IMG/VR virus record: IMGVR_UViG_3300034175_000062
Span: 1 to 64,000 of that record
Source of the DNA: a virus
Strand: one strand, 5' to 3'
Length of the DNA stretch: 64,000 nt
Below the pieces are notes generated by a model, which worked only from the letters and a program-made list of their open reading frames with translations, did not search any database and was not told the DNA's origin. How positions within the stretch are numbered: position 1 is the stretch's first letter; the number at the start of each line of letters is the position of its first letter. The position numbers were made by a program, and so were the translations under genes. This document shows positions 36,934 to 52,630 of this stretch, in pieces.

Positions 36934-37105
36934 GTCGCGCTGAATACAAACTGTCTTTATTCTGTGCGCCAGCTGAAAGCAACTGAACAATCAATCTGAA
37001 CATTTCGGAAAATTCTGACTAGCGCAAGGATTGAGGCTCCTTTTTGGATACCAACTCAATGGGAACCCATGGGGCCCCGCAGCGTTACACATTGCCACTT
37101 GCGAC

Positions 37106-37135
37106 AAGGGTGCCACCCTTTCGGACGACACCCTT
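37106..37135 (-). terminator. GAAA-tetraloop hairpin at the end of the leftward early block
   Basis: Minus strand AAGGGTGTCGTCC-GAAA-GGGTGGCACCCTT. Confidence 0.5.
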
Positions 37136-37167
37136 CAGTCATTGTCTGTGTGGGGCGATGCCCTGGA

Positions 37168-37503
37168 TCAGACCAGGAGCATCATCCGGGCGTCGAACTC
37201 TTCCTCGGTCTCGGTGGGCTCGGGGAGGGCTGCGTCACCCAGGACGATGAAGCCCTTGTCCGCGTCGTGGCGGATATCGTCCTGGCGGAGCCCGGCGTCG
37301 AAGGCGTCCTGGATGGTCTCGATGCCGGGGGCGAAGTAGCCCTGGAATCGCTCGTAGCTCATCGTGCCCTTCTTCTTGGGGTTCTCGGCCACCACGACCT
37401 TCAGCGGGGTCAGGAGGTAGAGGTCCTTCTTCGTCATGGTCTCGCCTTCAGCAGCGGCCAGGGCGAGGATGGACTGGGCCCAGGTTGCGTTGGTGGTCGT
37501 CAT
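37168..37503 (-). CDS. early protein with NPK-domain (paralogue of 51746-52393)
   Basis: AENPKKKGTMSYERFQGY..TIQDAFDAGLRQDDIRHDADKG; GC-rich codons; own promoter. Confidence 0.8.
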   Translation of the reverse strand: MTTTNATWAQSILALAAAEGETMTKKDLYLLTPLKVVVAENPKKKGTMSYERFQGYFAPGIETIQDAFDAGLRQDDIRHDADKGFIVLGDAALPEPTETEEEFDARMMLLV

Positions 37504-37735
37504 GGTGATTTCCCTTCCGTTTTGGAGAACCCCTTGTTCCCCTTTGATGTTACCATTCTATACAATACGCAATGCGTTGTAAACGGTTATTTTGATCGAG
37601 GCGCAAGTCTTTCTGGCCATCTGAGAGCGATCAACCATGCATGGCACGCTCCTACCATGGGACTCAGATCACCTCTGACGCCCTCAACTTTCTCCTTTAC
37701 AAAGTGGATGTATCGACTTAGAATGGGCCATCATC

Positions 37736-37924
37736 CTAAGACAATTTCGGCCTGGTCTCCCAGTCGACCTTCTCCATCGCGTACCCCATGCGGTAGGCAG
37801 CGAGTCGATGATGGTCGAGATCGGGGTTACCGAGTGGCTTGCCGGCGAGGAAGTCCTCCTGTCCCTGCTTGTACGCGTCGTGTTCTGCTGGAGCGTCGTT
37901 CCGCGGCTTTACGCTGATATGCAT
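37736..37924 (-). CDS. small early protein, weak Rmf/CrpP-like pattern
   Basis: AGGAG RBS; AYKQGQEDFLAGKP...AYRMGY. Confidence 0.6.
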   Translation of the reverse strand: MHISVKPRNDAPAEHDAYKQGQEDFLAGKPLGNPDLDHHRLAAYRMGYAMEKVDWETRPKLS

Positions 37925-38154
37925 AGCGCTGTCTCCTGGTTGTGATAGACGGCGATAGCGAGCGCCCAATACTGTAGCGACTCGTACGGCACGCCTTCGA
38001 TCTCTTTCGGTACGCCCTGTGGACGCTGACCGTGGAAGATAATTGCCCACTGATCGTGGCCCATATATCGAGCCTGAGCGTAGAGGATCTTCTCGTCGTT
38101 GCTGACGAAGTGCAGCTGGTCTTCCTTGCGGATCCAGGTGATGCTAGTCGACAT
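37909..38154 (-). CDS. hypothetical early protein
   Basis: AAGGAGG RBS, own promoter. Confidence 0.75.
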   Translation of the reverse strand: MSTSITWIRKEDQLHFVSNDEKILYAQARYMGHDQWAIIFHGQRPQGVPKEIEGVPYESLQYWALAIAVYHNQETALCISA

Positions 38155-38292
38155 CGTTATCCTCCTTGCCTTACCCTCTTATTCTATCATGAGATCAATG
38201 CCATGTAAAGGGCTATTTTAGCGCTCGCAATCAAGGCCACGCCATCAATGCCTATCTAGACGCGCAATGCGCCCGCTGGTCGATCGATCGAT

Positions 38293-38484
38293 TCAGCTGT
38301 TATACTGCACAGACTCGATACAGTCGGCCGCGATAGTGAGAGTATCGAAGGGGCTGTTGCTCTTCGATGTGTCCATGACGACCTCGTTGTGCTCCTGGTG
38401 ATAGGCGCTGATGTGTCCACGATACTCGGCACCGCTCTTGGTCCGGATGATGCACTGTAGATCGAGAAGTGGGTTCAAACGCAT
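38293..38484 (-). CDS. small early protein, possible Sm/Hfq-like fold
   Basis: GGGAG RBS; IRTKSGAEYRGHI...VVM...IAADCIESV. Confidence 0.65.
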   Translation of the reverse strand: MRLNPLLDLQCIIRTKSGAEYRGHISAYHQEHNEVVMDTSKSNSPFDTLTIAADCIESVQYNS

Positions 38485-39046
38485 TGCGCGCTCCCTAGCA
38501 GAAAAGTGGAGGGATTTTGCTCCCTTGATACACCCATTCTAATACGATTCGCAGTGAGTGTAAAGGACTATTTTTGATGCGCAATGCGCCGGCTGGCGTT
38601 TGTTCGATCCTGCAAGGGCGGATGTATAGGGTAGTCCTCATTGCGCCCTACGGAACTACATTGCAGAACATTGCATCTGCATGGCGATTTCAATAGCGAA
38701 ATATCCCGGGTCACTGAGTTCTTGCGAACAGCTGGTCGAACGCCGGGTTGAGTGAGGTGGGGTGTTTCGATAACAGGGATTAAATCCATGTCGTTCAGAC
38801 ACCATTGTTTTCTGATCATATACATCGCCTATTGACGTTTGTATGTACGTTGCATTAGAGTAATGCATCAGCCCTACGTCGTCTATAGGAATATTGTACA
38901 CGCGTCTACGCAGCGATGGATGTTTATTCTCCTATCGCTTATTAGCTATTAGATATCGTGTATGATCGTCTGAGAAATAGACGCGTAAGTATCGTTTCTT
39001 GTTATAGAAAGATTGATGGTACGTCATGAAGACGAGATGGATGATG

Positions 39047-39274
39047 TTATCCCGGATGACGACGGCTCCATTCGAGGAAGCTGATCGCTCGAGCATGCGG
39101 GTTCTGGATCAGGAAGGAGTCGCCACGATTACGGTCGCGGAAGAAGCCCCAGTACCAGTACCAGTTGAAGCGATCGCCCTTTATCTCGAAGATGTCGCTG
39201 ATCGTGAAGTCGCCGGTATTGAGGTCACCCTGGAATGCGACGACACGGATCGGCTTGTCGTGTTCTACGATCAT
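39047..39274 (-). CDS. hypothetical early protein
   Basis: Coupled to 39271-39474. Confidence 0.65.
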   Translation of the reverse strand: MIVEHDKPIRVVAFQGDLNTGDFTISDIFEIKGDRFNWYWYWGFFRDRNRGDSFLIQNPHARAISFLEWSRRHPG

Positions 39275-39474
39275 GCTACGTACTCCCCGGCTGCTTTTCT
39301 AGCTTCGACGCCACACTGATAGCAGCGAGTCTCGTCGCCTACCCGGTGTGCGTTAGGACGCGATTGGTTCATCTTCCCCACGTGGTCGCATTCTTCGAAG
39401 GAGACGAGGACGACACTAGGCGTCGCTTCGACTTTCTTCACGGTGCGAAAGATTCCACGAGGGTCGATTGACAT
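39271..39474 (-). CDS. small Cys/His (zinc-binding?) early protein
   Basis: ECDH...CYQC; RBS and promoter. Confidence 0.7.
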   Translation of the reverse strand: MSIDPRGIFRTVKKVEATPSVVLVSFEECDHVGKMNQSRPNAHRVGDETRCYQCGVEARKAAGEYVA

Positions 39475-39559
39475 TTCCTGTCTCCTTATACGCTCATTCT
39501 ATACAGTCGGCGGAAAACGTCAACAAGAATGTTACCCTTGACGTTTGTTTTTCTGCGAC

Positions 39560-39997
39560 TTAGTATGTGAGCTGATACCAGACGTCGACTTCTTCGATGA
39601 GCTGGGCTGGAGTCTTATCATCGATCGTCGTTTTGAAGATGGGAGCCGGTCCTACACCCGGAACGTGGATCGCGCTGTTCGCAGCGTAGTCCAGTTCGAT
39701 GTTGTAGAAGAACTTGTGGTCGTACTGCCAGCTCTGGTCGTCGTAGAAGTCTGGGATCGTGTGGCCATCCTCGATACCGACGACTCGATTGCGCTCCTCA
39801 CCGTCCGCCTTGTGGTCGTGTTCGACGATGATCTGACGCTCGTTGCGTGGCGCAGGGAGGGCACCAGCACTGCCCATGATCGACGGGAAGATGATGCCCC
39901 GCACGGCAGCGTTAAAGTGGTCGCCGAAGACGCCATGATGCTCGGAACCCTCGTGGGCGCCGATAGCGCCGATGAGTGCTGGATGGTGTGCCGTCAT
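39560..39997 (-). CDS. hypothetical early protein
   Basis: AAGGAGA RBS, own promoter. Confidence 0.75.
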   Translation of the reverse strand: MTAHHPALIGAIGAHEGSEHHGVFGDHFNAAVRGIIFPSIMGSAGALPAPRNERQIIVEHDHKADGEERNRVVGIEDGHTIPDFYDDQSWQYDHKFFYNIELDYAANSAIHVPGVGPAPIFKTTIDDKTPAQLIEEVDVWYQLTY

Positions 39998-40051
39998 ACC
40001 TGTCTCCTTATACGCCTATTCTATCACGTGACGGGAAATCGTCAAGGACTA

Positions 40052-40297
40052 TTATGACTCCTGCCTAATGACGAACTGTCGATCGAAGCCATTCGCTGCC
40101 AGATAGAGGAAGTCTGACGACATGCCGCCATGTTCACCCCACTCGATCGCTGGATCGAAGTCGACATAGCCAGCCTCTTCGGCCTGCTTCTGACAGTACT
40201 CGATCGCTTCGCCGGGCGTGTCGAAGGTCTTCACCTCGTCGATACGTACGCCGACCTTCGGGTCAAGATCGATGTTGACAAATGTGTAGCGGCGCAC
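40052..40297 (-). CDS. hypothetical early protein
   Basis: Operon with 40300 and 40520. Confidence 0.65.
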   Translation of the reverse strand: MRRYTFVNIDLDPKVGVRIDEVKTFDTPGEAIEYCQKQAEEAGYVDFDPAIEWGEHGGMSSDFLYLAANGFDRQFVIRQES

Positions 40298-40299
40298 TA

Positions 40300-40527
40300 C
40301 TATTCATCCTTCTCGATCAGGGCGTAGATCGAGTTCCGGGTCTCGGCGTACTGAACGCCGTCCTCTTCGAACATCGATACGACCGGCGACGTGATGATAT
40401 AGTCGCCAGTCTCTGCGCCGGCTGCTTCCTGGTTGAGCATCGCCTTACCGCGGATGCGATGATCGGCGTAGTGGCGATACTCCTTCCAGTTACGGAGGAC
40501 GTTGACGATCTTCTTGCCGTTACGCAT
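40300..40527 (-). CDS. hypothetical early protein
   Basis: GDYIITSPVV...AETRNSIY, a pattern recurrent in small phage proteins. Confidence 0.7.
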   Translation of the reverse strand: MRNGKKIVNVLRNWKEYRHYADHRIRGKAMLNQEAAGAETGDYIITSPVVSMFEEDGVQYAETRNSIYALIEKDE

Positions 40528-40708
40528 CGCGCTTTTCCCCGTTGCTGATGATGTGGACGACCTGCCACTTCTCGGTGTCGAAGATGACGAATTCCGAGGT
40601 GCCGAACTCTTTCGACGTTGCCATCGCGAAGCGGACTGCGTTGGCGTAGAGGCCGAAGCGGCCCCAGAGGACGAAGGGATTGTCCTTACGATATACGACT
40701 AGATGCAT
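40520..40708 (-). CDS. hypothetical early protein
   Basis: AAGGAGAG RBS, promoter. Confidence 0.7.
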   Translation of the reverse strand: MHLVVYRKDNPFVLWGRFGLYANAVRFAMATSKEFGTSEFVIFDTEKWQVVHIISNGEKRDA

Positions 40709-40761
40709 AACCGCTCTCCTTATACACCCATTCTAATACGATACGCCATCCTTGTAAAGGA

Positions 40762-41022
40762 CTATCTTAGCGCCTCCGTGATCATATTGTACCGACCGCG
40801 ACCGGCCGCCTTGACCGTCACCTTGTACTTCTTGCCCTCGATCTCGAACGCGAAGCCGAACGGACGCTTGTACGCCTTGATGCATGGGACGCCGGCGAAC
40901 CTGGTCGCGGCAGCACGATACTCCTCGATGTCCTCGTACTGTTTCTCGTCCTGCCAGCGCTCGTACAGGTTGAGGACCCACGGCGCCTTCATGATCTCTT
41001 CGACCTTCGCAGGGAATGGCAT
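40762..41022 (-). CDS. hypothetical early protein
   Basis: NLYERWQDEKQYEDIEEY, KRPFGF; GGAG RBS. Confidence 0.75.
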   Translation of the reverse strand: MPFPAKVEEIMKAPWVLNLYERWQDEKQYEDIEEYRAAATRFAGVPCIKAYKRPFGFAFEIEGKKYKVTVKAAGRGRYNMITEALR

Positions 41023-41024
41023 CG

Positions 41025-41144
41025 TTATTCTCCGATCTCGAACAGGGTGTTGATGAAGTTGGTGACGATGTTCGTCTTCGAGTCGATGATCAGGAGGGCG
41101 ATAGCCGCCGAACCAATTGCCATGACTACTAGAAGCGTTCCCAT
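41025..41144 (-). CDS. 39-aa membrane peptide (MGTLLVVMAIGSAAIALLII...), not in ORF track
   Basis: Read manually; GAGGG RBS after promoter. Confidence 0.6.
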   Translation of the reverse strand: MGTLLVVMAIGSAAIALLIIDSKTNIVTNFINTLFEIGE

Positions 41145-41233
41145 TGCCTATTCCCTCATTTGATAACCCATTCTATCACGATACAGAAAAACGTCAAGGT
41201 ATATTTCAACCTTGACGTTTGCTGTAGTTCGTG

Positions 41234-41476
41234 TTAGTCTTCGGTCTTAGTGATCAAAAATGGAGGCTCGAAGTCGGTATGTTCCGGAACGTGGTCGTTC
41301 AACCAGGCGATGATCTCGTCAGACTCACCTGAGACTGACTGAGTGTCCTCGTCGTAGTCTGGGTGGTGTACGAGGTAGCCATTGAACTCGTCGTTCAGAT
41401 ATTCGACGATCTCGGACTCGTTGCTGAAGTCCTCTTCGAAGTCCATCTCGTTGTCGTTGTGGACGATCTTGACCAT
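41234..41476 (-). CDS. highly acidic 80-aa early protein (DNA-mimic candidate)
   Basis: 24 D/E versus 2 K and 0 R; AAGGAG RBS; own promoter. Confidence 0.75.
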   Translation of the reverse strand: MVKIVHNDNEMDFEEDFSNESEIVEYLNDEFNGYLVHHPDYDEDTQSVSGESDEIIAWLNDHVPEHTDFEPPFLITKTED

Positions 41477-41535
41477 GCTACTATTCTCCTTACAGGAATA
41501 TACTAACACGATAGCCAGAAATGTCAATAACTAAG

Positions 41536-41775
41536 TTAGTCGACCTCCATGAAGAAGGAGATGATGACCTTCTCGTCTGCAGGCCCGCTGTCGATGACCT
41601 CTCTGTCCATGAGCAGATCGACCTCGTCCTCCTGGAGTCCGAGTTCCCGGCGACAGTACCGAAGCGCTTCAGCGAATCGTGTGAAGACCTTGATCTCGGC
41701 CTTGTTGTAGCCGCCGCCGATCAGCTCGGGCTGGTGGTTGACCGTCTCCTGCGAGACTACAGTGTACCTCTTCAT
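41536..41775 (-). CDS. hypothetical early protein
   Basis: Coupled to 41772-42128. Confidence 0.65.
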   Translation of the reverse strand: MKRYTVVSQETVNHQPELIGGGYNKAEIKVFTRFAEALRYCRRELGLQEDEVDLLMDREVIDSGPADEKVIISFFMEVD

Positions 41776-42128
41776 TTCGTCACCTTCTTTCTGAGTGGTC
41801 GTGGGATCACATTGCGCGGATTGTCGACGCGACAGGCGGTGCCACGACCACGATCGCTATCACGATTATATCGCCAGCCGGTGGTGTGCTCTTCGCCATC
41901 GAGCATGACCGTTTCTCCATCGCTGAAGCGGACACATTCGTATTTGCCGATCTCGATGCAGGTGACCTCAGTGCCATCGAGGCACTTGTACGTCTCACCG
42001 AGAACGAATGGCTCGGTCGGGTTATCGCGACGATGATCGTGGTATGCTTTCGACAACGCCATGTATGCGATATACGCATCGCCGGTGAGGGCTTCATCCT
42101 CGATGTAGAGCGTAACCGTAACCGTCAT
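41772..42128 (-). CDS. hypothetical early protein
   Basis: AAGGAGA RBS, promoter. Confidence 0.72.
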   Translation of the reverse strand: MTVTVTLYIEDEALTGDAYIAYMALSKAYHDHRRDNPTEPFVLGETYKCLDGTEVTCIEIGKYECVRFSDGETVMLDGEEHTTGWRYNRDSDRGRGTACRVDNPRNVIPRPLRKKVTK

Positions 42129-42198
42129 ACCCTGTCTCCTTATACACCCATTCTATAACGATTGGGCCACATTGTAAAGGCATTTGTTTGCCTTGACA

Positions 42199-42573
42199 TT
42201 ACCGCCAGATCGGATAGAGTGTATCGGTGAGCATGTTGATGTCCTCGAGGATCGTGTCTCGCTGGTGATCGACTTCTTCCAGTGCGCCTCTCTCAGATTG
42301 ATCCAGAGTGCCCTCTTCATGCTTCACCATGAGCTCCTCCCAATACGGAGTAATCTCACTCAGAAGGGCATTCAGCTTATCGATTTTACCCTTTGCTTCC
42401 TTCTTAGCAGCAGCCTTATCCGCCCTCTCCTGCCTCTCCCAGATCTTCTTCGTCCTGGCTCGCTCTTGCTCGGCCTCACGTTGACGCTTGATAGCGCCCG
42501 AACGGAGTGCGACGAGGTTTGCGTTGGCCTGGCGCCGAAGCTGCACGACGTCTGTTTGCTTCCAGTACATCAC
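42199..42573 (-). CDS. coiled-coil hypothetical protein
   Basis: Coupled to 42570-42857. Confidence 0.7.
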   Translation of the reverse strand: MMYWKQTDVVQLRRQANANLVALRSGAIKRQREAEQERARTKKIWERQERADKAAAKKEAKGKIDKLNALLSEITPYWEELMVKHEEGTLDQSERGALEEVDHQRDTILEDINMLTDTLYPIWR

Positions 42574-42857
42574 AGGCTCGCATCGATACGGTGGATGGTG
42601 TACGAATGAGCCCGCTTATCGGCCCGGTCGGTACGCTCGTGGTCGTCGATCTTCTTCTCGATCTCATCGAACGAGTTGCCGATGAACATGATGCCGTAGA
42701 CGTAGCACCAGAAGAACGTCGTGTTGTCCGTCCGGAAGAAGAAGCCGCCCATCGTGCAGTGGTAGACGTACTTAGCGTCCTTATCGCCGTAGACGTGCTC
42801 CGGGATCATCGGCCAGCCGATACGTTCCGCGTTCTCTGGGGTGTTAAGATAGAGCAT
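42570..42857 (-). CDS. hypothetical early protein
   Basis: AAGGAGA RBS, promoter. Confidence 0.72.
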   Translation of the reverse strand: MLYLNTPENAERIGWPMIPEHVYGDKDAKYVYHCTMGGFFFRTDNTTFFWCYVYGIMFIGNSFDEIEKKIDDHERTDRADKRAHSYTIHRIDASL

Positions 42858-42914
42858 CTCAATCTCCTTATAAAGAGATACTATAACGATTGGGCAGAAA
42901 CGTCAAGGGCTATT

Positions 42915-43382
42915 TTACCCTTGACAAATGAAGTTAGGGACATACTCCTTCTGGTAGAGGATCTTCTCGATGACTGCACGATCACGATTGACCCATTGCT
43001 GATTGCTCAGGACGAGATAGTACTCCTTCGTCTCTGGCAGGAACTGGATGAAGTAGCGATCGACGTACTTGTAGCCGGACGATGTATCGCCTTCATCGAT
43101 GCCGTAGCACTCAGCGAAGTCCTTGTCGCTCTGATCGACGAGCTTCTCCGTCATCCTGAACTCCTCGAAGGAGAGCGGCGTCAGGCCGAAGGTCATCTGC
43201 ATGATGTCGTAGAGCCGCGCCAGCGATGCGTTCGAGAGGGCGTGGACCTTATTGCGTGCTTCCTTCGCCATCAGATAGGCGTCGGTCTTCGGCATGCTGT
43301 CGGTCTTGTAGTAGAGCTGCAAGTCGTCGAACATGTTCTGGACTTTGATCGCCTTCTGATAGGTATCGAGTTCCTTACGCAT
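42915..43382 (-). CDS. hypothetical early protein (C-terminus related to 48630-48896)
   Basis: AAGGAG RBS; GYKYVD..I...YYLVL...IEKILY. Confidence 0.75.
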   Translation of the reverse strand: MRKELDTYQKAIKVQNMFDDLQLYYKTDSMPKTDAYLMAKEARNKVHALSNASLARLYDIMQMTFGLTPLSFEEFRMTEKLVDQSDKDFAECYGIDEGDTSSGYKYVDRYFIQFLPETKEYYLVLSNQQWVNRDRAVIEKILYQKEYVPNFICQG

Positions 43383-43474
43383 GGTGTTCTCCTTGCCTCT
43401 TGATACACCCATTCTAATACGATACACAGAAACGTCAAGGCATATTTTTACCTTGACGTTTGTTGTGGACTGTA

Positions 43475-43774
43475 TTAGACCGATTCAGCTAACCAAGTCT
43501 CAACGCGATGCACTAGCTCGAGGCGAGGGATCTTCGACCCGCCCATGATCACCAGCGTATTTTCTGGTCCGACCGGAGAGACGAACTGAGCGACATCAGC
43601 CTCATCGTCTACGTCGATCACACAGAAGCCGTGAGTGACGCCGCTATCGCCGGTATAAGCCGGGATGCCGTTGTTCTCGGCTTCGGAGTCGAATGGGACG
43701 TCCTCTACATGCTCATAGACGAGCTTGCCGAGTGTAGCGTTCCAGGTGTAGCTGAAGATGGCGTGTAATCGCAT
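43475..43774 (-). CDS. hypothetical early protein
   Basis: AGGA RBS; operon context. Confidence 0.68.
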   Translation of the reverse strand: MRLHAIFSYTWNATLGKLVYEHVEDVPFDSEAENNGIPAYTGDSGVTHGFCVIDVDDEADVAQFVSPVGPENTLVIMGGSKIPRLELVHRVETWLAESV

Positions 43775-43778
43775 GTCG

Positions 43779-44057
43779 TTATCCTATGATCTGGCCGGTG
43801 TCGGCGTCGATTGCCCGGACAGTTCCCGGAATGTTCTGCGAGGCGAGGTGGTCAGTCCTCCAACCAGCGTCCTTGTAGGAGCAGCGAATGACGCCGACCC
43901 AACGACCATCTGAGCCCCGTCGCTGGATCTCGGCCTTACGACCGCCTACGACCTGTGGCGTGTAACTGCCACGACTGCTCTTACCGAACAGCTTCTGGAA
44001 CAGCATGACGACCATGGCGAGGACGAAACAGACGAGGCTTAGAGCAAAGTATTCCAT
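43779..44057 (-). CDS. membrane-anchored hypothetical protein
   Basis: AAGGAG RBS; N-terminal hydrophobic helix. Confidence 0.68.
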   Translation of the reverse strand: MEYFALSLVCFVLAMVVMLFQKLFGKSSRGSYTPQVVGGRKAEIQRRGSDGRWVGVIRCSYKDAGWRTDHLASQNIPGTVRAIDADTGQIIG

Positions 44058-44081
44058 TGGACTTCTCCTTGACATTCGTTC

Positions 44082-44366
44082 TCAGGCAGGATAGCCTATA
44101 TTCCCATCAACCAGCTTGCTCTCATCGATCCCGTACATCATTTCGACGGGAATTCCGGTGATCGTCAGCTGATAGTCAGGCGAAGGAAATGCGATACGGA
44201 GTTGCGCCATCAGGGCGATCAGGTGACCGTGGTCGCTATTGGGAGTCAGCACCCGGGTGTAGTGATAGTACTGGGGTGCTGTGTTGTTCCAATTGCGACC
44301 CTTCGCTTTGGCCACGTTGACCTCGAAGTTCTTGATGAGCGGCAGCTTCTCCATGATCTTCTCCAT
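44082..44366 (-). CDS. hypothetical early protein
   Basis: RBS and promoter. Confidence 0.7.
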   Translation of the reverse strand: MEKIMEKLPLIKNFEVNVAKAKGRNWNNTAPQYYHYTRVLTPNSDHGHLIALMAQLRIAFPSPDYQLTITGIPVEMMYGIDESKLVDGNIGYPA

Positions 44367-44451
44367 CCGTCCTTATAGAGAGATACTAACACACCCGAGG
44401 GAAAATGTCAAATGGCGTGCCTACCATACGATAAGCACGCCATTCAATGGA

Positions 44452-45111
44452 TTATGCGGTCGCGTAGATGACGGACCGCTTTCTCAGTCCGTACGCCATC
44501 ATGCCGAAGCCGATCAGCATCATCGCCCAGGTCGAGGGTTCCGGGACAGCTGATGCGGTGTCGTAGACATATGTCACGGTGGACGAGATGTAATATCCCG
44601 TGCCGTGCAGATATGTCGGCTGCAGCGCGGTGCCGTCGAGTGACCCGAAGTTCAGCGAAGGAGCGCTATAGATGCTGATGAAGTCATCGTCACCCTTGCT
44701 TATGAACTGATCGATGAAGTCGCCGGTGAAGATCGATTTCACGTTGCCGCCGAAGCTGACGACCGCAGTCTCGGGATTCGCGAAATAGCTGTCAGCGATC
44801 TTGTCGATCTTGACAGATCCATAGAGCGAGTCGCCCATGGTCCCGACGATATGAACCGCCGGACCCATGATCGGTTCATAAGCGCTGATCGATGGCATAT
44901 CGAATGGTTGATATGCCGCGAACGAGAAGCTCCCGTCATAGTAGTTGTCGAAGCTGACGCTCTTCAGTGTCCCCAGCCTGCTGTCGAACTTCGACAGATA
45001 GACGGACGACGGTCCGTATTGGTATTCGGACTTCTTCATCTCCTCAGCCACAGCTGGTGCTGCGACCATGGAAAGCGAAGCGCAAATAATCAGGATGCCA
45101 TGTCGAAACAT
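44452..45111 (-). CDS. PEPxxWA-CTERM sorting-domain protein with signal peptide and choice-of-anchor E-like domain
   Basis: Signal peptide MFRHGILIICASLSMVAAPAVA; FDSRLGTLKSV; VTYVYD..AVPEPSTWAMMLIGFGMMAYGLRKR. Confidence 0.9.
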   Translation of the reverse strand: MFRHGILIICASLSMVAAPAVAEEMKKSEYQYGPSSVYLSKFDSRLGTLKSVSFDNYYDGSFSFAAYQPFDMPSISAYEPIMGPAVHIVGTMGDSLYGSVKIDKIADSYFANPETAVVSFGGNVKSIFTGDFIDQFISKGDDDFISIYSAPSLNFGSLDGTALQPTYLHGTGYYISSTVTYVYDTASAVPEPSTWAMMLIGFGMMAYGLRKRSVIYATA

Positions 45112-45176
45112 AATATATTCCTTTCTTATCACCAATCTAGTTGGTATAGTAATACTATAACGATTGAAGGAAAATG

Positions 45177-45653
45177 TCAAACGGCATTAATCTTAGCGTC
45201 TGCCTCACGAAGGAGTCTGATCTCTGTGTCACGCCGCCACGATGCTTCGCTGCGCTGCATGCTGTCCCACTTAACACGACCGTCAACGCGGACTGCCCAG
45301 CAATAGCCGTCGTCACCGTTCTCCTGACGCATCGTTACACGTCGGGTGAACTTGTCGGAGGTCGGCTTGATCGACGAGCGAAGATACTCGATACACGCTT
45401 TGATGATGGATGGCTGGGTCTCGAAGACGATGCGCTTATACGATCGGTCATAACGAAATGCCTCTGCCACGAAGTACGACTCAGTACGACGCTTACCAGG
45501 TGCCGCCGGCTTCAGCTTACGCTCAGCTACGACTTGGAACTTGCGCGATCCATACTTCACACCGATATAGGCGATGTGTGTGGTGTCGTCCTTCTTGCTG
45601 GCGCCGAGGTTGGTGACGCCTTTGAAGGTGTATTCTGGCGTAGGTTTCGTCAT
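45177..45653 (-). CDS. basic hypothetical early protein
   Basis: ORF, operon context. Confidence 0.7.
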   Translation of the reverse strand: MTKPTPEYTFKGVTNLGASKKDDTTHIAYIGVKYGSRKFQVVAERKLKPAAPGKRRTESYFVAEAFRYDRSYKRIVFETQPSIIKACIEYLRSSIKPTSDKFTRRVTMRQENGDDGYCWAVRVDGRVKWDSMQRSEASWRRDTEIRLLREADAKINAV

Positions 45654-45665
45654 GGCGTTATCTCT

Positions 45666-45980
45666 CTACCAGCGCTTGATCGCGAGGATGGACAGAACGC
45701 GACCGAGCAGGGTCGGACACGAGTTGAACGAGGTGAGGACCAGCGATCCACGACCAAAGCTGCCGAGCGGCGGATGGACTACGCCGACATCGTAGCCATT
45801 GCCTGCCTCGTTCTCGAGCCGGATGCGACCGCCGAAATTCTGCTTGACCACCACGCCCTCGTGGTGGATCGATGCGGGATAGAGGACGAACTTCTCGCCC
45901 TTATCGTTGACACCGGCTTCAGCGATGGACTCTACGATGGAGTCCCATTCGACGTCCGATACAGTGAATTCCTTGCTCAT
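45666..45980 (-). CDS. hypothetical early protein
   Basis: GGAG RBS after promoter. Confidence 0.68.
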   Translation of the reverse strand: MSKEFTVSDVEWDSIVESIAEAGVNDKGEKFVLYPASIHHEGVVVKQNFGGRIRLENEAGNGYDVGVVHPPLGSFGRGSLVLTSFNSCPTLLGRVLSILAIKRW

Positions 45981-46052
45981 GATGATCTCCATCCGTTGAT
46001 ATAGAGATACTAATACGTTTTGGCCTAGTTGTAAAGGCGAATATTCAATTGA

Positions 46053-46355
46053 CAAACAAGAACAGCCAGAGTATAACCCTGGCTGTTCCCGTGGACCTTC
46101 ATTTTGTAGGCGTTGAGATCGAGTGAGTCTGCAGTTTGTCGCAGTGAGTCAGAGATCTATTCGCCTGGGGTTTTGGCCCTATGTGCGTTGGCGCTTGACT
46201 GTTACGGTGTTAACGTCCTGCGTCGTAACAGTCTATGTCAGGACAATCCGGAAATCCACGTCATGCTTATCGTCTCCGATCGCGCCGTTGGTATTGGAAC
46301 GCCAGGCCATACTGATACTCTGTGGCCGTTACTGATACTCTATAGCCTTCCAATA
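46053..46355 (-). ncRNA. candidate structured non-coding RNA (about 300 nt)
   Basis: Promoter TTTACA-N17-TAGTAT at 46361-46389; no RBS-bearing ORF; several stems; terminator GAACAGCCAG/CTGGCTGTTC followed by TTGTTTG. Confidence 0.6.
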
Positions 46356-46492
46356 ACAAGATACTATAACGATTGGTCCTAGTTGTAAAGGACTATATTA
46401 TGGCCGTCGTGGCTCGACTGCATGCGTGAACAGGAACCACGACGGCCTTCCGACGTCGGTCGGGTCGCTCCGTAAAGCCCGACGCCGAAACT

Positions 46493-46729
46493 CTAAAGCA
46501 ATTCAACCTCGTTGATACGAAAGGACATGCAACTGCCAACGTGCGACAGCTCCTTCCGTATCGTCTCTTCATCGATTGGCTCACCACAGAAGTCGCCAGC
46601 CTCGAGAGCGCTCTTTACCGCCTTGTTGAGCGTGCCGCAGACACTCCAGATCGTCGTCTTGTCGTCAACGAGGTTCTCGACCTCTACGAGGAAGACGGTG
46701 GGTGCTTCTCTGGGTACGCCGAAAACCAT
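46493..46729 (-). CDS. hypothetical early protein
   Basis: Coupled to 46729-46914. Confidence 0.65.
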   Translation of the reverse strand: MVFGVPREAPTVFLVEVENLVDDKTTIWSVCGTLNKAVKSALEAGDFCGEPIDEETIRKELSHVGSCMSFRINEVELL

Positions 46730-46914
46730 CAGTCGTCGATCTTCAGTAGAGTGACCTCGTTTAGAACGATGGCCATCTCACCATGAACGAAGTGACTGAA
46801 TACGAAGAAACGACCCCGCCAGTCGATCACGCCAGGTGTAGCGATAGTCGCGGCTGGGACGTCAGTCTCGTGTACAGTCTGACCGTCCATCGTATTGAGG
46901 ATCAAATGATACAT
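46729..46914 (-). CDS. hypothetical early protein with structured 5' leader
   Basis: ATG 46914 after GGAAGA; leader 46928-47020 folds. Confidence 0.62.
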   Translation of the reverse strand: MYHLILNTMDGQTVHETDVPAATIATPGVIDWRGRFFVFSHFVHGEMAIVLNEVTLLKIDD

Positions 46915-47079
46915 AGTGTCTTCCATGCAGCTTATGAGGACGGTGGCGGGTACGAAACCGCAGAACCCGACAGCAAGAGGGGAGCCAGAAGCCGGGTCAC
47001 CGTCCACATAAACTGTATTATGTGGCCATTCTATCACGTGATAGGAAAATGTCAATGGCTATTTTAGTGCGCCTTGACA

Positions 47080-47205
47080 TTACCCGGGCGCCGGGATATT
47101 CTGCCGGTTCGGCTGGGTTTGGGTCATGTAAAGTTTGAGCGTGCCCTGCAGACGCTTCCGGGGAGTGGGCTGAGAGGTGATCTTCTGCTTCTTGGAGGTA
47201 TTCAT
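47080..47205 (-). CDS. 41-aa basic peptide (MNTSKKQKITSQPTPRKRL...), not in ORF track
   Basis: Read manually; AAGGAAGGAAG RBS. Confidence 0.5.
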   Translation of the reverse strand: MNTSKKQKITSQPTPRKRLQGTLKLYMTQTQPNRQNIPAPG

Positions 47206-47241
47206 TGTCTTCTTCCTTCCTTGCTCTGAGAGGGCATCAGC

Positions 47242-47439
47242 TTAAGCTGATGGAATGCCGTTGTTCATTCGATAGAGGCGAACTTGTTCTAGGACATCGT
47301 CCTCGCTCTGGAGTTCCAGCAGTGCATCGCACGTCATCATGTCGGTGACGATCTCTGCATCAGTCATTCCCTCGAACGTATAGCCATTTTCAGCTGCGTT
47401 CTCAAAGGCTTCCTTAACGAGTTCGGCGAGCGTTATCAT
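47242..47439 (-). CDS. acidic hypothetical early protein
   Basis: AGGAG RBS, promoter. Confidence 0.72.
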   Translation of the reverse strand: MITLAELVKEAFENAAENGYTFEGMTDAEIVTDMMTCDALLELQSEDDVLEQVRLYRMNNGIPSA

Positions 47440-47488
47440 GATGATCTCCTATCCAATAAAGAGATACTACCACGATATGATCAAATTG

Positions 47489-47674
47489 TCAATGACGATG
47501 TTTGATCTCTCGAATGAGTACGCAGGCCGAGAGGATGACGGCCAGGGCGAAGAACAGCATGCCAGCCGCTCCGAACCAGTTGGCCAGACTCTCGCTACCG
47601 TGTGCTAGGAACCCCGACGACATGCTGATGCAGACGAAGCTCACAACCACGGATACGATCAGTATGAAGAGCAT
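47489..47674 (-). CDS. two-TM membrane protein
   Basis: Two hydrophobic segments; coupled. Confidence 0.65.
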   Translation of the reverse strand: MLFILIVSVVVSFVCISMSSGFLAHGSESLANWFGAAGMLFFALAVILSACVLIREIKHRH

Positions 47675-47988
47675 CAGCTGGCCCTCTCCCTCATCTGCTC
47701 GATCTCTGCCAGGCCGATGACTCGTGCCGTTCCGTTCTCGATCTTGGTCTTCAACTCGGCTAGCTCGTTCGTAACGCGCTTGTCGAGGATCTCCACGATC
47801 CGGTCGGAAGTCGCACCAGCCAGCATGCTCTTGATCTCGTCTTCCGACGTCTGCTTAGCCAGCTGGAGAGCGTGCATGCATGCAGTGACGGTCAGAAAGT
47901 TTACGGCGTTGGGCCGTTGGATGAACGATTCAGACGCCGTCCGCATCTCGTTGGTGCAGATCATGATGGCGTGCTTCTTCATTCCCAT
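47674..47988 (-). CDS. hypothetical early protein
   Basis: GGGAG RBS, promoter. Confidence 0.7.
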   Translation of the reverse strand: MGMKKHAIMICTNEMRTASESFIQRPNAVNFLTVTACMHALQLAKQTSEDEIKSMLAGATSDRIVEILDKRVTNELAELKTKIENGTARVIGLAEIEQMRERAS

Positions 47989-48038
47989 TCGTAGTCTCCC
48001 TTATTTGATGACCCATTCTATCACGTGATAGGAAATTG

Positions 48039-48539
48039 TCAATCACTTTGTTCTTCGTCTGTCTCCGGCTTATAGTTTTCCCAGTCGATCTTAGGGAGGA
48101 CCATGACGTAGAATACGCCCTCGGCTTGATCGAGCCCCTTCGTGATCGTGATCAGGTTGACATCGATCCCAGCGACCTCACATTCTGCACGAATGCGTTT
48201 GTCGAGCTGATGGATGATGGTTCGTTCATCGTGCCAGTAGAAGACGCGGTTGTGCCACAACTGGATGATGGCTGGAGCGTTCTCCTTCGAGGTAAACGAG
48301 TCGCTCATCTCCCACGACTTGTAGATCTCGGCGTCCATGTGCTCCTGGATGAGCGTGGCGTCGCCGTTGTCGAACAGCTGCGCCTTATAAGGCTGGTCGT
48401 GCTCCGTCGTCCAGATCAGCCAATAGCCACCGTTCATCTCGAACTTGAAGAAGATCGACTCGCGGATGTCCCAGCTGTTGATAAACTCATCGAGACCCGG
48501 CAGCGTTGTGGTCCGAAATGCACCGTTCATATCGAGCAT
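48039..48539 (-). CDS. hypothetical early protein
   Basis: GGGAG RBS before ATG 48539, promoter. Confidence 0.72.
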   Translation of the reverse strand: MLDMNGAFRTTTLPGLDEFINSWDIRESIFFKFEMNGGYWLIWTTEHDQPYKAQLFDNGDATLIQEHMDAEIYKSWEMSDSFTSKENAPAIIQLWHNRVFYWHDERTIIHQLDKRIRAECEVAGIDVNLITITKGLDQAEGVFYVMVLPKIDWENYKPETDEEQSD

Positions 48540-48629
48540 GGTGATCTCCCTATCCAATAAGAAGATACTAATACAAACAAGAAAAAACGTCAAGGCATAT
48601 TTCAGCCTTGACGTTTGATGTAGTTCGGA

Positions 48630-48896
48630 TTAGGCTAGCTGAAGTTGCTGGGTGCTATCCCAGAGCTTTCTCTCGAGTTCCTCGAGTCCCGAGCCGTCGT
48701 ATGCAGCAATGGGGATCTTGTTGATCGTAACGATATAGAACTCTGGGCCGATCTCCTCGATCCAGCCCACGATACGATCTTGTGGGTCGCGATATATGAA
48801 GCCGATAGGTGTAACACCCGGGACATCTACATCGCGGCCTAGATTGGTTGTGTATCGTCTAAGAGCGATAAACGCATCGAAGTCGAACATAGCCAT
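48630..48896 (-). CDS. hypothetical early protein
   Basis: GGAG RBS; GFIYRD..I...FYIVTI...LEELERKLW. Confidence 0.7.
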   Translation of the reverse strand: MAMFDFDAFIALRRYTTNLGRDVDVPGVTPIGFIYRDPQDRIVGWIEEIGPEFYIVTINKIPIAAYDGSGLEELERKLWDSTQQLQLA

Positions 48897-48929
48897 GACA
48901 TTTCTCCGTCCCCCCGCATAGGTGGACGT

Positions 48930-49106
48930 TTAGAGGGACTTGTACTTCTCGCTGCCGTTCGAGCGAGCGAAGCGATCAAATACGCTCTTCGCATTGTCAG
49001 CCGAGGTAGCGCCGGACTTGAACTTGGACTTGCCGGTCGACATGGGAACCTTCATAACACGAACAGGTTTACCGTCGCGACCGATGTTGGTAATAGGCAT
49101 GCTCAT
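48930..49106 (-). CDS. 58-aa basic protein (MSMPITNIGRDGKPVRVMKV...), not in ORF track
   Basis: Read manually; GGAGAG RBS after TTTACA-N17-TAAGAT. Confidence 0.6.
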   Translation of the reverse strand: MSMPITNIGRDGKPVRVMKVPMSTGKSKFKSGATSADNAKSVFDRFARSNGSEKYKSL

Positions 49107-49170
49107 ATTTCTCTCTCCATGCTGAGGGTTTCATCTTAACACAGGATAAGGCAGATGTAAACCCACTTTG

Positions 49171-49359
49171 TTAAACGACAGGAAAATAATTTACCTGCCA
49201 AGAACGGCCAGACCGTGATATAATGGCATACTCGGTCGGCTCGTTGTGAGCGTCTAGGAGGGCGCCTGGCTTTCTATATAGCAGCCCGCCGTCCTTGACG
49301 TCGTAATGGATCGTGTAACCAGACTCGATAACGAGCTTGATGGCGTTCTTCTTCGTCAT
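49171..49359 (-). CDS. hypothetical early protein
   Basis: Coupled operon. Confidence 0.62.
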   Translation of the reverse strand: MTKKNAIKLVIESGYTIHYDVKDGGLLYRKPGALLDAHNEPTEYAIISRSGRSWQVNYFPVV

Positions 49360-49610
49360 CAGCTGATTGGCTGTTTGTACGTGAAGATGCCCTGCTTGTT
49401 CTCGACCTCATAGATCACGTTGTCGATTGTGACAGACTGCGCAACGCGGTTCTCGTCTTCACTGATCGACTGTAGGTTACCGAGAAGCGAACCCTGGATG
49501 TACCCGTCTGGGTCTTCCTTGTTGAAGTCGAGGATTCGAATAAGGTCGTTGTGTATCTCGTAAGTCATCGTCCAAACGTACGATGCGATGACCATTGCTG
49601 CTTTCTTCAA
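49359..49610 (-). CDS. hypothetical early protein
   Basis: Coupled operon. Confidence 0.6.
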   Translation of the reverse strand: MKKAAMVIASYVWTMTYEIHNDLIRILDFNKEDPDGYIQGSLLGNLQSISEDENRVAQSVTIDNVIYEVENKQGIFTYKQPIS

Positions 49611-49870
49611 ACTATTGTTCCATTTGCTTTACACACGAACTCGAGCATGACGCGATGTGCTACGTCACCAGGAAGATCGCTAAATCGATTATGATACTCC
49701 GCGCCATCGGCGTCGAAGAAGGTGAAGTGGAACTCGGTGGGATGACGATTCGATGGTATCACTTTACCAGTACGAAACGGACGCTTGAGATGATCCCATG
49801 GTCCTGTCTTCGATGGTATGAAACAGGCTCGACGATCTAGTAAGAAACGCGTCGGCACTTTAATCGTCAT
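49607..49870 (-). CDS. hypothetical early protein
   Basis: ATG overlaps the end of the ArfA-like ORF. Confidence 0.62.
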   Translation of the reverse strand: MTIKVPTRFLLDRRACFIPSKTGPWDHLKRPFRTGKVIPSNRHPTEFHFTFFDADGAEYHNRFSDLPGDVAHRVMLEFVCKANGTIV

Positions 49871-49994
49871 AGTCGAGTTCTCTCTTGAACGCACGACGGT
49901 TATAGGAGGAACCCTTGCCTTTGAACAGGGGCTCGGAACGAGGTTGGAATTGACCCTGGGAGAGGCCGGCTGCGATGACGTTACGCTTCTTCAT
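49860..49994 (-). CDS. ArfA-like alternative ribosome-rescue peptide (44 aa), not in ORF track
   Basis: MKKRNVIAAGLSQGQFQPRSEPLFKGKGSSYNRRAFKRELDYDD; AAAGGA RBS; first gene after TTGACA-N17-TAGACT. Confidence 0.68.
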   Translation of the reverse strand: MKKRNVIAAGLSQGQFQPRSEPLFKGKGSSYNRRAFKRELDYDD

Positions 49995-50064
49995 GGTGTG
50001 TTCCTTTCGAAGCTTAGTCTAACACAGCCTCCTCAAATTGTCAACCGTTGACATTCAGTTGTAT

Positions 50065-50340
50065 TTAGCTTATCTTCAACCCACGGTCAAGACGGGCTGC
50101 AATAGCCTTCGACCGTACGTAGACCTTAGATGCTGTAGTGAAGGCGTAGTTGCTTCGCTGGGCGACTAGGACACCATCTCGTGGGCCTCGTGGTCGGTAC
50201 CACCAGTGGTCCTTATCGAGCGTCCATCGACCGTACTTTTCGCCGGGATTGAACAGAGAACCGTGACCATCACGCACGTTCTTCTCACGACCAAGGCGTA
50301 GTGCCCGTTGGTCCATCGTCTCGTTCTGTATGTCGGACAT
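50065..50340 (-). CDS. basic hypothetical protein with RBS-sequestering leader hairpin
   Basis: ATG 50340 with GGAG inside a long hairpin 50340-50416. Confidence 0.65.
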   Translation of the reverse strand: MSDIQNETMDQRALRLGREKNVRDGHGSLFNPGEKYGRWTLDKDHWWYRPRGPRDGVLVAQRSNYAFTTASKVYVRSKAIAARLDRGLKIS

Positions 50341-50472
50341 TCCATGCTCCGTAGGGTGTGGGCGCCGACGAGATTGGAAAGGGGTTCGTCGGCGCCCACT
50401 GCGGTATAGCATGGAAGGAGTTCAACCGCCCATGCATTATAACACGCAGATGGGAAAATGTCAAGGGCTATT

Positions 50473-50694
50473 TTAACCCTCGACTAGCTCTCTTGCTTCG
50501 ATGTTTGTTTGTGCGAGCACCTTAACCTCGGCGAGGCGGAGCATGCTGGCAGCACCACCCGGCCAGGACTTTACGACCGCTTCGAACCGCTTGATCGCGT
50601 TCTCAGGAGTGTCACGGAATCGGCTACCAGTCGACTCCCAGCCAATCGGGTGTACGTACGTTTCGATGACATACGAGACACAGCCTTTCGCCAT
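50473..50694 (-). CDS. hypothetical early protein
   Basis: GGGAG RBS. Confidence 0.68.
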   Translation of the reverse strand: MAKGCVSYVIETYVHPIGWESTGSRFRDTPENAIKRFEAVVKSWPGGAASMLRLAEVKVLAQTNIEARELVEG

Positions 50695-50695
50695 G

Positions 50696-50974
50696 TTAGC
50701 GAGCTCCCTTATGTTCGAACCAAGCCTTAGCGATGAAGTTCTCTTCGAGGTAGGTCACGATCTTCTTCTCGGCTTCATCGTCCTCTGCGTTAGCATGAAG
50801 CTCCTCCCACGTCTTACCGCAGGCAAGCTGGAAGCCGATGATATCGTACCAGTACTCGACCCACCGCTTTGGATGAACCTCGACACCGAGCATAGCACAC
50901 AGCTCTTTGTCCACCTCTTCGAGGGGAACGACCTGTCCGGTACGCTTGGATGTTAGACTAAAGCAGTTCGGCAT
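50696..50974 (-). CDS. hypothetical early protein
   Basis: MPNCFSLT...WYDIIGF; AGGAGG RBS, promoter. Confidence 0.75.
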   Translation of the reverse strand: MPNCFSLTSKRTGQVVPLEEVDKELCAMLGVEVHPKRWVEYWYDIIGFQLACGKTWEELHANAEDDEAEKKIVTYLEENFIAKAWFEHKGAR

Positions 50975-51033
50975 AGCCGTTTCCTCCTATCCGTTACTAT
51001 GATACTAACACGATAGGAGGAAAACGTCAAGGG

Positions 51034-51414
51034 CTATTTCATACGCCAGACCATCAGGTACTTCTGCTCGAGATATCGAGTGTACCAGTGGTACTTGCCC
51101 TTCGCGTTGATCGCATAGAGCTGTTGGCGGAATCGTTGAGCCTCGTGGGGAGGCATCTCGTAGATCGAATTGGCTGCGATCGGGAGCTCCATAGCATGAG
51201 CTATGATGTTCGCATATCCCTTAATCACGCTTGGCTGAGGTGAGCTGATGCCCTGCTCAGAGGGTGAAGCTGATTGGCTGGGAGATTCTACCATAGGAGA
51301 ATACCACCTCTCGGACAAGGTCTTATCCTTGGTCCGAGCTAGTCGCTTGGCGAGGAGACGCTTGGGCTCCTTGATCCGCCGGTCAGCCACTCGATTCTGA
51401 AGTCTTAACGTCAT
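51034..51414 (-). CDS. hypothetical early protein
   Basis: GGAGG RBS, promoter. Confidence 0.72.
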   Translation of the reverse strand: MTLRLQNRVADRRIKEPKRLLAKRLARTKDKTLSERWYSPMVESPSQSASPSEQGISSPQPSVIKGYANIIAHAMELPIAANSIYEMPPHEAQRFRQQLYAINAKGKYHWYTRYLEQKYLMVWRMK

Positions 51415-51480
51415 ACATCCTCCATGCTACGTATAACCTATTTTATACACATGACTGGATAAAGTAAAGGCCTTATTACC

Positions 51481-51509
51481 TTGACAATTTACTCGATGCT
51501 GTATATAAT
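51481..51509 (+). promoter_or_regulatory. perfect-consensus sigma70 promoter
   Basis: TTGACA-N17-TATAAT. Confidence 0.85.
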
Positions 51510-51510
51510 G

Positions 51511-51725
51511 CCTATGGCCTTTCAAACACAGTAGTATGATCAGTTAGAAGGGATCTGAGAGGATCTAACTGATAGATTGTTAGTCCTACCATATCAGTGG
51601 TAAGTGACTCAGAGGGCACTCAGATTAACTACAGCATAGGGATATGAGATGTATGTACGTGTATGCTGTATCTGTCTTACGCACAAACAAAAAGAGGGAA
51701 CCCATTGCTGAGCTCCCTCTTTGTT
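51511..51725 (+). ncRNA. candidate structured non-coding RNA (about 210 nt)
   Basis: Follows the consensus promoter; stems CCTATG/CATAGG, GTAGT/ACTAC, ATCAGTTAGA/TCTAACTGAT; ends at hairpin AAAGAGGGA/TCCCTCTTT. Confidence 0.55.
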
Positions 51726-52601: not shown

Positions 52602-52630
52602 TTTACAGCGAGGGGTTCTCGGATTATAAG
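52602..52630 (+). promoter_or_regulatory. sigma70-type promoter, divergent
   Basis: TTTACA-N17-TATAAG. Confidence 0.65.

Follow-up and report, generated by a model that had tools for sequence, protein, structure and literature searches.

The window analysed here, the first 64 kb (64,000 nucleotides) of the 100,455-bp viral record IMGVR_UViG_3300034175_000062, contains an array of small minus-strand genes, some of whose intergenic promoter cassettes are accompanied by promoter-like sites on the plus strand, aimed back into the 3′ ends of the upstream genes. The pattern formed by these backward sites is real and peculiar to this array. Our preferred reading, to which we give about even credence from the sequence, is that the backward sites are the mirror half of a palindromic cassette of the promoter-early stem-loop (PeSL) type, kept by the stem, by a stop codon and by descent, with weak antisense initiation probably a tolerated by-product. 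PeSL cassettes have been described in the T4-like myoviruses RB49/phi1, T4/PST and KVP40/nt-1 (PMC2839356, PMC4122927).

The record comes from a biocrust metagenome and belongs to an uncultured T4-like myovirus, with a completeness of 58% (CheckV). That metagenome is the only DNA sample listed with the complete sequence, and no RNA run is listed with it. Its structural genes are of T4 type, with baseplate wedge and fibre genes near the tail sheath gene, and the tail sheath is 51% identical to that of Stenotrophomonas phage DLP6 and 47% identical to those of Caulobacter phage Cr30 and the Sinorhizobium phiM12 group. None of five minus-strand array proteins tested had a PHROG match, and coding scores revealed no inverted genes within the array. 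The predicted sense promoters, about 24 in number and all on the minus strand, match the sigma70 consensus at 9-12 of 12 positions; a promoter scan of both strands of the array region returned 37 sites against 13.3 expected in shuffles. Their consensus begins with AAAATAGyCC, 5′ of a -35 box of the form TTGACA, TTTACA or TTGACG, and continues through a spacer of N16-17, usually ending in ATCGTGT, to a -10 box (TAGAAT or TAGTAT), AAGGAG and, 6-8 nt after AAGGAG, ATG. The array, the hairpin of one cassette and the plus-strand sites are as follows.

Positions 37100..51520, minus strand: small-gene array, ~30-45 small ORFan genes with ~24 sigma70-type sense promoters.
Positions 41189..41220, minus strand: cassette hairpin, AAACGTCAAGG-N10-CCTTGACGTTT with a T run after it, predicted to act as the intrinsic terminator of gene 41234-41476.
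Positions 41212..41240, plus strand: backward look-alike, TTGACG-N17-TAGTCT with a TGn extension; best plus-strand match to the cassette promoter profile.
Positions 39538..39566, plus strand: backward look-alike, TTGACG-N17-TAGTAT, of the 41212 cassette family.
Positions 43453..43481, plus strand: backward look-alike, TTGACG-N17-TAGACC, of the 41212 family; without the final T; overlaps the TAA of gene 43475-43774.
Positions 48608..48636, plus strand: backward look-alike, TTGACG-N17-TAGGCT, of the 41212 family; overlaps the TAA of gene 48630-48896.
Positions 42193..42220, plus strand: backward look-alike, TTGACA-N16-TAGAGT; its flank CTA-TCCGATC is homologous to the family CTAATCCGAAC.
Positions 47074..47102, plus strand: backward look-alike, TTGACA-N17-TATTCT, with a CCCGG/CCGGG hairpin within the spacer.
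Positions 46049..46077, plus strand: backward look-alike, TTGACA-N17-TATAAC, without the final T.
Positions 50048..50076, plus strand: backward look-alike, TTGACA-N17-TATCTT, 3 nt from a sense -35 box (TGTCAAccgTTGACA); forms no terminator.
Positions 38832..38861, plus strand: half cassette, TTGACG-N18-TAGAGT; the family 5′ half only, with no adjoining 3′ arm or sense promoter.
Positions 44069..44097, plus strand: half cassette, TTGACA-N17-TAGCCT; its TGTCAAGG arm is joined directly to the ribosome-binding site (TGTCAAGGAG) of gene 43779-44057.
Positions 37696..37724, plus strand: stand-alone backward promoter-like site, TTTACA-N17-TAGAAT, with cassette-like flanks (atcgact 5′, ggg 3′).
Positions 51481..51509, plus strand: separate promoter, predicted from a perfect TTGACA-N17-TATAAT; its back-to-back partner is the weak sense promoter 51468.

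All twelve plus-strand pairs named in a first-pass annotation of this DNA were found, with the coordinates, hexamers and spacers it gave, and an additional pair that it had not listed lies at 40275 (TTGACA-N17-TACTAT). Two of the -10 hexamers, at 43453 (TAGACC) and 46049 (TATAAC), lack the key final T. The annotation proposed a test of whether N17-TAnnnT is enriched after plus-strand TTGAC, and the enrichment is borne out, far above resampled or shuffled sequence. Among the 20 plus-strand TTGAC[AG] boxes in 37400-51600, TAnnnT follows at N17 in eight, at N16 in one and at N18 in one; the remaining spacers from 5 to 40 nt give 0-1 each, with 0.23 expected per spacer. For the wider pattern TT[GT]AC[AG], 11 of 25 plus-strand boxes have TAnnnT 16-18 nt on, compared with 0.9 in random plus-strand pieces and 1.4 in local shuffles, and none of 20,000 resampling trials reached 11 qualifying sites. 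The sense strands of RB49 and T4 also show an N17 peak (48 and 33 sites), whereas an antisense N17 peak is absent from both phages (5 vs 2.2 expected in RB49; 3 vs 2.5 in T4).

The backward sites were said to stand mostly back to back with a sense promoter, the two -35 boxes forming an inverted repeat. This arrangement is present at 39538, 41212, 42193, 43453, 46049, 47074, 48608, 50048 and 51481, but not at 37696, 38832 or 44069, and the description of the sites as systematic was overstated, since a backward partner occurs at only 9-10 of the 24 sense promoters. Six pairs of -35 hexamers are separated by 14 nt and the rest by 3, 12, 13 or 18 nt (18 nt at 47074, which partners the sense promoter 47055), and the -10 boxes of back-to-back pairs are 49-64 bp apart. 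As the gap varies (3, 12, 13, 14, 18 nt), a dimeric DNA-binding protein was rejected as the cause of the inverted -35 boxes. At nine cassettes a putative opposite-strand promoter lies just past the predicted terminator and is aimed into the gene. Coding scores agree with the annotation that no plus-strand gene follows the backward sites, and a gene behind them is ruled out as their explanation; downstream of 51481, ~200 nt without an open reading frame (ORF) are followed by a hairpin and then a minus-strand gene.

Part of this pattern follows from the hairpins. The 3′ arm of the 41189..41220 hairpin is the -35 box of the sense promoter 41197-41170, and because the stem contains the sense -35 box, a plus-strand -35 box is forced. 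Identical stems occur at 43430-43461 and 48585-48616, and a related stem at 39515-39546; the four main-family hairpins have predicted folds of -21.3, -21.9, -19.5 and -11.4 kcal/mol; their 3′ arm includes the sense -35 box and is followed by a T run. In total, hairpins with T runs are predicted at about 9-10 of the 24 cassettes, at -11 to -26 kcal/mol. Further hairpins containing a -35 box lie at 42906, 47055 and 50464, and one at 44411 adjoins the -35 box with a different stem. One of the cassette hairpins pairs without a backward -35 box.

Positions 50459..50484, minus strand: cassette hairpin without a backward -35 box, GTCGAGGG/CCCTTGAC, the minus-strand RNA fully paired via G.U.

The backward box is missing here because the plus strand reads CTCGAC. 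Together with those at 42901-42926, 44408-44447 and 40045, it is one of four hairpin cassettes without a backward promoter, and 14 of the 24 sense promoters lack a backward partner.

The likeness between the two halves of the cassette extends beyond the stem. Cassettes align over a common flank, (n)CTAA..CG..C.ACA.CAAACGTCAAGG, of which diverged versions are found at 42178 and 47055. At 42193 the flank has lost one base relative to the family, which accounts for its N16 spacer and its lack of a stop codon; its sense partner is TTTACA, and the inverted repeat, which has one mismatch and no T run after it, is accordingly not a terminator. Homology links the spacers of 41212, 43453, 48608, 39538, 38832 and 42193 among themselves and with the spacer of the sense promoter; by eye, 13 of 16 positions of the 41212 spacer agree with the sense spacer in cassette 43438. 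Aligned to all sense spacers and expressed relative to 72 control TTGAC sites, the z scores are 3.4 for 41212, 2.9 for 43453, 1.9 for 48608, 1.8 for 51481, 1.7 for 38832, 1.6 for 42193 and 1.5 for 39538. Segment by segment, identity to the sense promoters is high after the -35 box (z 4.1) and before the -10 box (z 3.2) and absent after the -10 box (z -0.1), so that the likeness is confined to the stretch between the boxes. CG at -17/-16, a cassette trait, is found at six of 13 backward sites, and the TAG start of the -10 box, also a trait of the array cassettes, is carried by backward sites. A reading of TTTGCT in one spacer as a MotA box was rejected, as it occurs in only one of four copies. 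The cassette is most simply read as an imperfect palindrome of ~80 bp, the 5′ half of which would be an inverted, decayed promoter copy.

Several backward sites share features of the sense spacer, and thus exceed what a bare hairpin plus a stop codon would give. They are promoter-shaped and far above chance, as the annotation had supposed; this is not proof of selection. Nor does conserved spacing combined with differing spacers prove selection as promoters, as had been argued, since for the most part they are copies of a single cassette half that has been repeated, which also accounts for the fixed N17.

Stop codons constrain the same positions. At 39560, 41234, 43475 and 48630 the -10 look-alike overlaps the upstream TAA, as annotated: the T before the look-alike and its TA are the stop codon in reverse. 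The TTA at 41234, within the 41212 site, is the stop of the upstream gene 41234-41476, and the TTAGTAT of the 39538 site, reverse-complemented, exactly gives the ACTAA end of gene 39560-39997. Sense -10 boxes often follow a T (tTAGTAT); TAA lies within the reverse complement, ATACTAA, so a -10 box turned round brings a stop with it. At the four stop-codon cassettes, -10 positions T1 and A2 are the stop codon itself and coding accounts for positions 1-5: G3 pairs with the final C of a last codon ending in C (43% usage) and position 5 with a G-starting codon (36%). Other stops in the array fall inside the -35 box (TGA), in the AAAATAG box (TAA or TAG) or just 5′ of the 5′ arm (TAA). At 45177-45182 and 48039-48044 the upstream gene's TGA lies inside the next gene's -35 box (TTGACA), an overlap of gene end and promoter without a spacer.

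As promoters, the backward sites look weak. Against a profile built from the 24 sense promoters, whose scores are inflated by shared cassette descent and serve only as a relative measure, the sense promoters score 20-56 bits (7-53 with each left out of its own profile) and the listed backward sites 17.6 (41212), 13.7, 13.1, 11.8, 8.6, 7.2 and 6.7, with 2.1 for 51481. In hexamer matches the backward sites reach 8-11 of 12, and 51481 12 of 12. Matches of 8-11 of 12 are within the range of ordinary promoters in E. coli promoter compilations, a point for selection of the backward sites. Among them only 41212 has the TGn extension; the upstream loop is T-rich in the backward orientation and offers no A-rich upstream element; and position 5 of the -10 box is not A in seven of eight family backward sites, but is A in 22 of 24 sense boxes.

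The proposed cassette can be set out, for the main family, in minus-strand order. The upstream gene ends in CTAA, followed by a 13-nt flank and the 5′ arm AAACGTCAAGG; next comes an A-rich loop of 10 nt, at the presumed position of an UP element of the sense promoter; and then the 3′ arm CCTTGACGTTT, doubling as the sense -35 box, leads into the T run and the spacer, after which come TAGAAT, AAGGAG and ATG. Transcription of the upstream gene is predicted to terminate at the inner inverted repeat. The outer flank would be an inverted copy, now degenerate, of the sense promoter's spacer and -10 box, probably arisen by inverted duplication, its TTA furnishing the upstream stop. TA at N17 would be held by the stop codon and by the shared descent of these copies. 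The resulting backward sites combine a good, ideally spaced -35 box with a poor -10 box, and several of them probably give low-level antisense initiation.

In its composition the cassette resembles the PeSLs: it appears to combine an early-type promoter, a stem-loop and flanking elements in a variable small-gene region of a T4-like genome. Like them, it is an intergenic module repeated among small ORFan genes, consisting of an AT-rich stretch, a strong sigma70-type promoter, a stem-loop as terminator (here predicted), and a Shine-Dalgarno sequence with a start codon, and like them it has degraded half copies. The half cassettes 38832 and 44069 are suggestive of the degraded half PeSLs of PMC4122927; the -10 look-alike of 44069 lies inside the end of gene 44082-44366. 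The differences lie in the compactness of the arrangement. The PeSL stem of RB49 is placed between the two promoter boxes or covers the -10 box, and that of PST and nt-1 is found just upstream of the promoter, whereas here the -35 box is itself the 3′ arm of the stem and the promoter spacer begins with the T run of the terminator. The inverted copy here reaches a -10 look-alike and a stop codon; RB49 and T4 are without an antisense N17 peak, and PMC2839356 contains no mention of 'antisense' or 'bidirectional'.

Several observations weigh against a purely passive origin of the backward sites. The pairs at 42193, 46049, 50048 and 51481 keep back-to-back -35 boxes without a terminator, and since no terminator is formed the hairpin cannot explain the inverted box at these places; in three of the four, moreover, the backward arm is TTGACA while the sense arm is TTTACA or TTTACT. 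For 40275, 44069, 46049, 47074 and 50048 descent is not demonstrated, as their spacers show no homology to the sense promoters. The final T of the look-alike requires an A-ending penultimate codon, which makes up 10.9% of array codons and 24% at gene ends but is present in three of four cases, a hint, from small numbers, of something beyond coding. Harmful antisense promoters should, furthermore, lose an N17 -10 box that lies beside a forced -35 box; the opposite is seen. Megablast and blastn against a phage collection gave no close relatives of the array, and blastn of one cassette returned only two weak Acinetobacter phage matches (E 0.9). No relative came out of motif scans of viral contigs for the hairpin and the promoter, or of a protein-based locus search with an array protein; a neighbouring-gene search found one locus (36% identity, 36% GC) without such cassettes, and one metagenome scanned for relatives yielded a single unrelated contig of 43% GC. 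Contigs of three biocrust DNA runs were also compared. One run probably represents the source sample; those of the other two were only short and of low depth, and they show no informative variation where the backward sites lie.

In a rival reading the backward sites would be selected antisense promoters, serving as a collision-based back-stop to the terminator or giving negative feedback by interference or antisense RNA; polymerase would start at a backward site, or flip there after termination, and enter the 3′ end of the upstream gene. We regard this as possible, though on the unlikely side. The N17 peak is sharp and other spacers are spared; T1, A2 and T6, the positions most important to sigma70, are kept while positions 3-5 vary, and in three of four unbiased cases T6 is kept at the cost of a rare A-ending codon. 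Backward TTGACA survives where the sense arm is TTTACA and the terminator is absent, 51481 illustrates that the back-to-back layout can hold a perfect-consensus plus-strand promoter, and 37696 would make a good stand-alone backward promoter. On the other hand, a backward site is found in only 9-10 of 24 cassettes, twice without the final T, and most are copies of one repeat, hence few independent events. A5 of the -10 box has been lost, an A-rich upstream element is absent and TGn is present once only; the hairpin at 50464 keeps its RNA pairing via G.U while its backward -35 box is destroyed; and classical PeSL phages, RB49 and T4, show no antisense peak. A very strong convergent promoter a few hundred bases off would also be expected to silence a weak one.

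Precedents exist for such an arrangement, contrary to the suggestion in the first-pass annotation that it forms a regulatory layer not yet described, and they speak for selection. Brophy and Voigt (2016; PMC4731013) combined a synthetic unidirectional terminator with a constitutive antisense promoter and found that repression scales with antisense promoter strength. The cassette shares with that part a terminator at the gene end followed by a promoter aimed back into the gene; the synthetic part is engineered and its activity was measured, whereas here the elements overlap (the -35 box lies in the stem) and the putative backward promoter is weak. In E. coli, antisense initiation occurs near ~20% of intrinsic terminators, with flipping of polymerase after termination (Harden et al., 2020; PMC6978322), and Wang et al. 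(2022; 10.1101/2022.10.23.513370) demonstrated collision-driven bidirectional termination at convergent gene pairs. Common to these cases and the array are a promoter-like sequence on the opposite strand near intrinsic terminators and a stem-loop between converging polymerases. The antisense sites of PMC6978322, however, have -10 boxes and an unusual -35 region, while in the array it is the -10 box that is poor and the -35 box that matches the consensus; and unlike the convergent gene pairs of Wang et al. (2022), the backward promoters here are without a gene.

A more specific version makes the palindromic cassette itself a selected two-way device, in which a single stem-loop would at once terminate transcription and provide two -35 boxes, that of the next gene's promoter and that of a weak backward promoter. 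We hold this to be rather doubtful. If true, polymerases started at the backward promoter, or flipped after termination, would collide head-on with incoming ones and thereby insulate neighbouring early genes or provide fast negative feedback, and the cassette would be a natural counterpart, inside a mobile phage element, of the synthetic terminator with its antisense promoter.

Alternatively, the palindrome may act at the DNA level, as a recombination hot spot (through a cruciform or snap-back structure) or as an either-orientation linker for PeSL shuffling, its likeness to a promoter being incidental. The homology between halves does reach beyond the stem, the half cassettes 38832 and 44069 look like recombination products, and PeSLs have been proposed as recombination or mini-circle sites whose stem-loop is perhaps the target of a recombination protein (PMC2839356). 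Yet the outer halves are too diverged to pair well, adding only 5-6 base pairs to the predicted folds, no array gene is inverted, and the persistence of T1, A2 and T6 would go unexplained; this reading is improbable.

Chance matches of a loose -10 pattern beside a hairpin-derived TTGAC would be favoured by the looseness of TAnnnT and by the 13 promoter-like hits that a generic scan expects by chance in the region; they are a negligible prospect, excluded by the 11 of 25 sites against about one expected, never reached on resampling, by a peak at N17 only, and by the seven sites that remain against 0.7 expected, by arithmetic, once the four stop-codon cassettes and 51481 are set aside.

Bidirectional promoters of a different kind arise from symmetry of the -10 box, with starts 18 bp apart in one -10 region, as described for the work of Warman et al. 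(2021) in PMC10268837. As far as that description goes, both systems would derive divergent transcription from DNA symmetry, in theirs often yielding non-coding antisense RNA, but in the present array the centre of symmetry lies between two -35 boxes and the predicted starts are ~65-95 bp apart (~86 bp at a 14-bp gap). PeSLs and terminator-linked antisense promoters are already known; what is new is that the -35 box and the terminator stem appear to be fused, that the inverted copy reaches as far as a -10 look-alike, and that this copy is used as a stop codon.

Of the sites outside the main family, 51481 is most likely a real plus-strand promoter. The two-way hairpin at 51691-51722, after its ORF-less stretch, has T runs on the minus strand and is not unusually stable (fold z -1.2); it also resembles a terminator of the minus-strand gene 51746-52393. 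The nearest sense promoter to 37696 is 113 nt off, and the site points at the end of a small minus-strand gene (~37736-37922). The '-10 box' of 46049 lies in the loop of the minus-strand terminator hairpin of an ORF-less unit, 46058-46352, which is a full minus-strand cassette (promoter 46389, 14-bp terminator hairpin) with no ORF of at least 50 amino acids. Its 295-nt transcript folds far better than shuffles (z -4.0, 0 of 200) and has no Rfam match; the unit is a candidate structured non-coding RNA on the strength of this fold. An Rfam scan of 36-53 kb returned only a sub-threshold microRNA match, taken as chance. The half cassette 38832 lies within 38570-39045, ~470 nt without a convincing coding frame on either strand, between the sense promoter 38564 and gene 39047-39274. 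Inside gene 44452-45111, at 44496-44552, many unrelated contigs pile up in all three biocrust runs; summed contig depth is 48.9 there and ~12 around it, and the ends of the pile-up are loose and GC-rich, which points to a short conserved segment common to the phage gene and many cellular genes in the samples.

Predicted promoters of the contig fall into two dialects, TAGAAT/TAGTAT in the array (37583-51468) and mostly TATAnT in the rest. Those outside the array are as follows.

Positions 32874 and 56884, plus strand; 90240, 94903 and 99609, minus strand: predicted TATAnT promoters.
Position 34927, plus strand, TATATT; position 63761, TAGAGT; position 52602, TATAAG: other predicted promoters.

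None of the promoters outside the array has a hairpin or a backward partner, and the plus-strand hits there (32874, 34927, 56884, 63761) precede plus-strand genes. A search of the contig, which is 58% complete, for AsiA gave no match, and the controls were without a match too.

PeSL cassettes are thought to drive the gene shuffling of T4-like phages, and the array presents what appears to be a very compact version, in which one 32-bp hairpin combines a predicted terminator with a -35 box and the mirror half supplies the upstream stop. This layout may help to explain how a cassette dropped behind a reading frame still ends that frame cleanly. For annotation, it carries a warning: where cassettes are palindromic, a promoter scan will report antisense promoters, and these may be by-products. 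Should the backward halves prove active, they would count as natural examples of terminator-coupled antisense promoters, which have so far been measured mainly in synthetic constructs and, in nature, inferred from end-mapping data in E. coli and B. subtilis.

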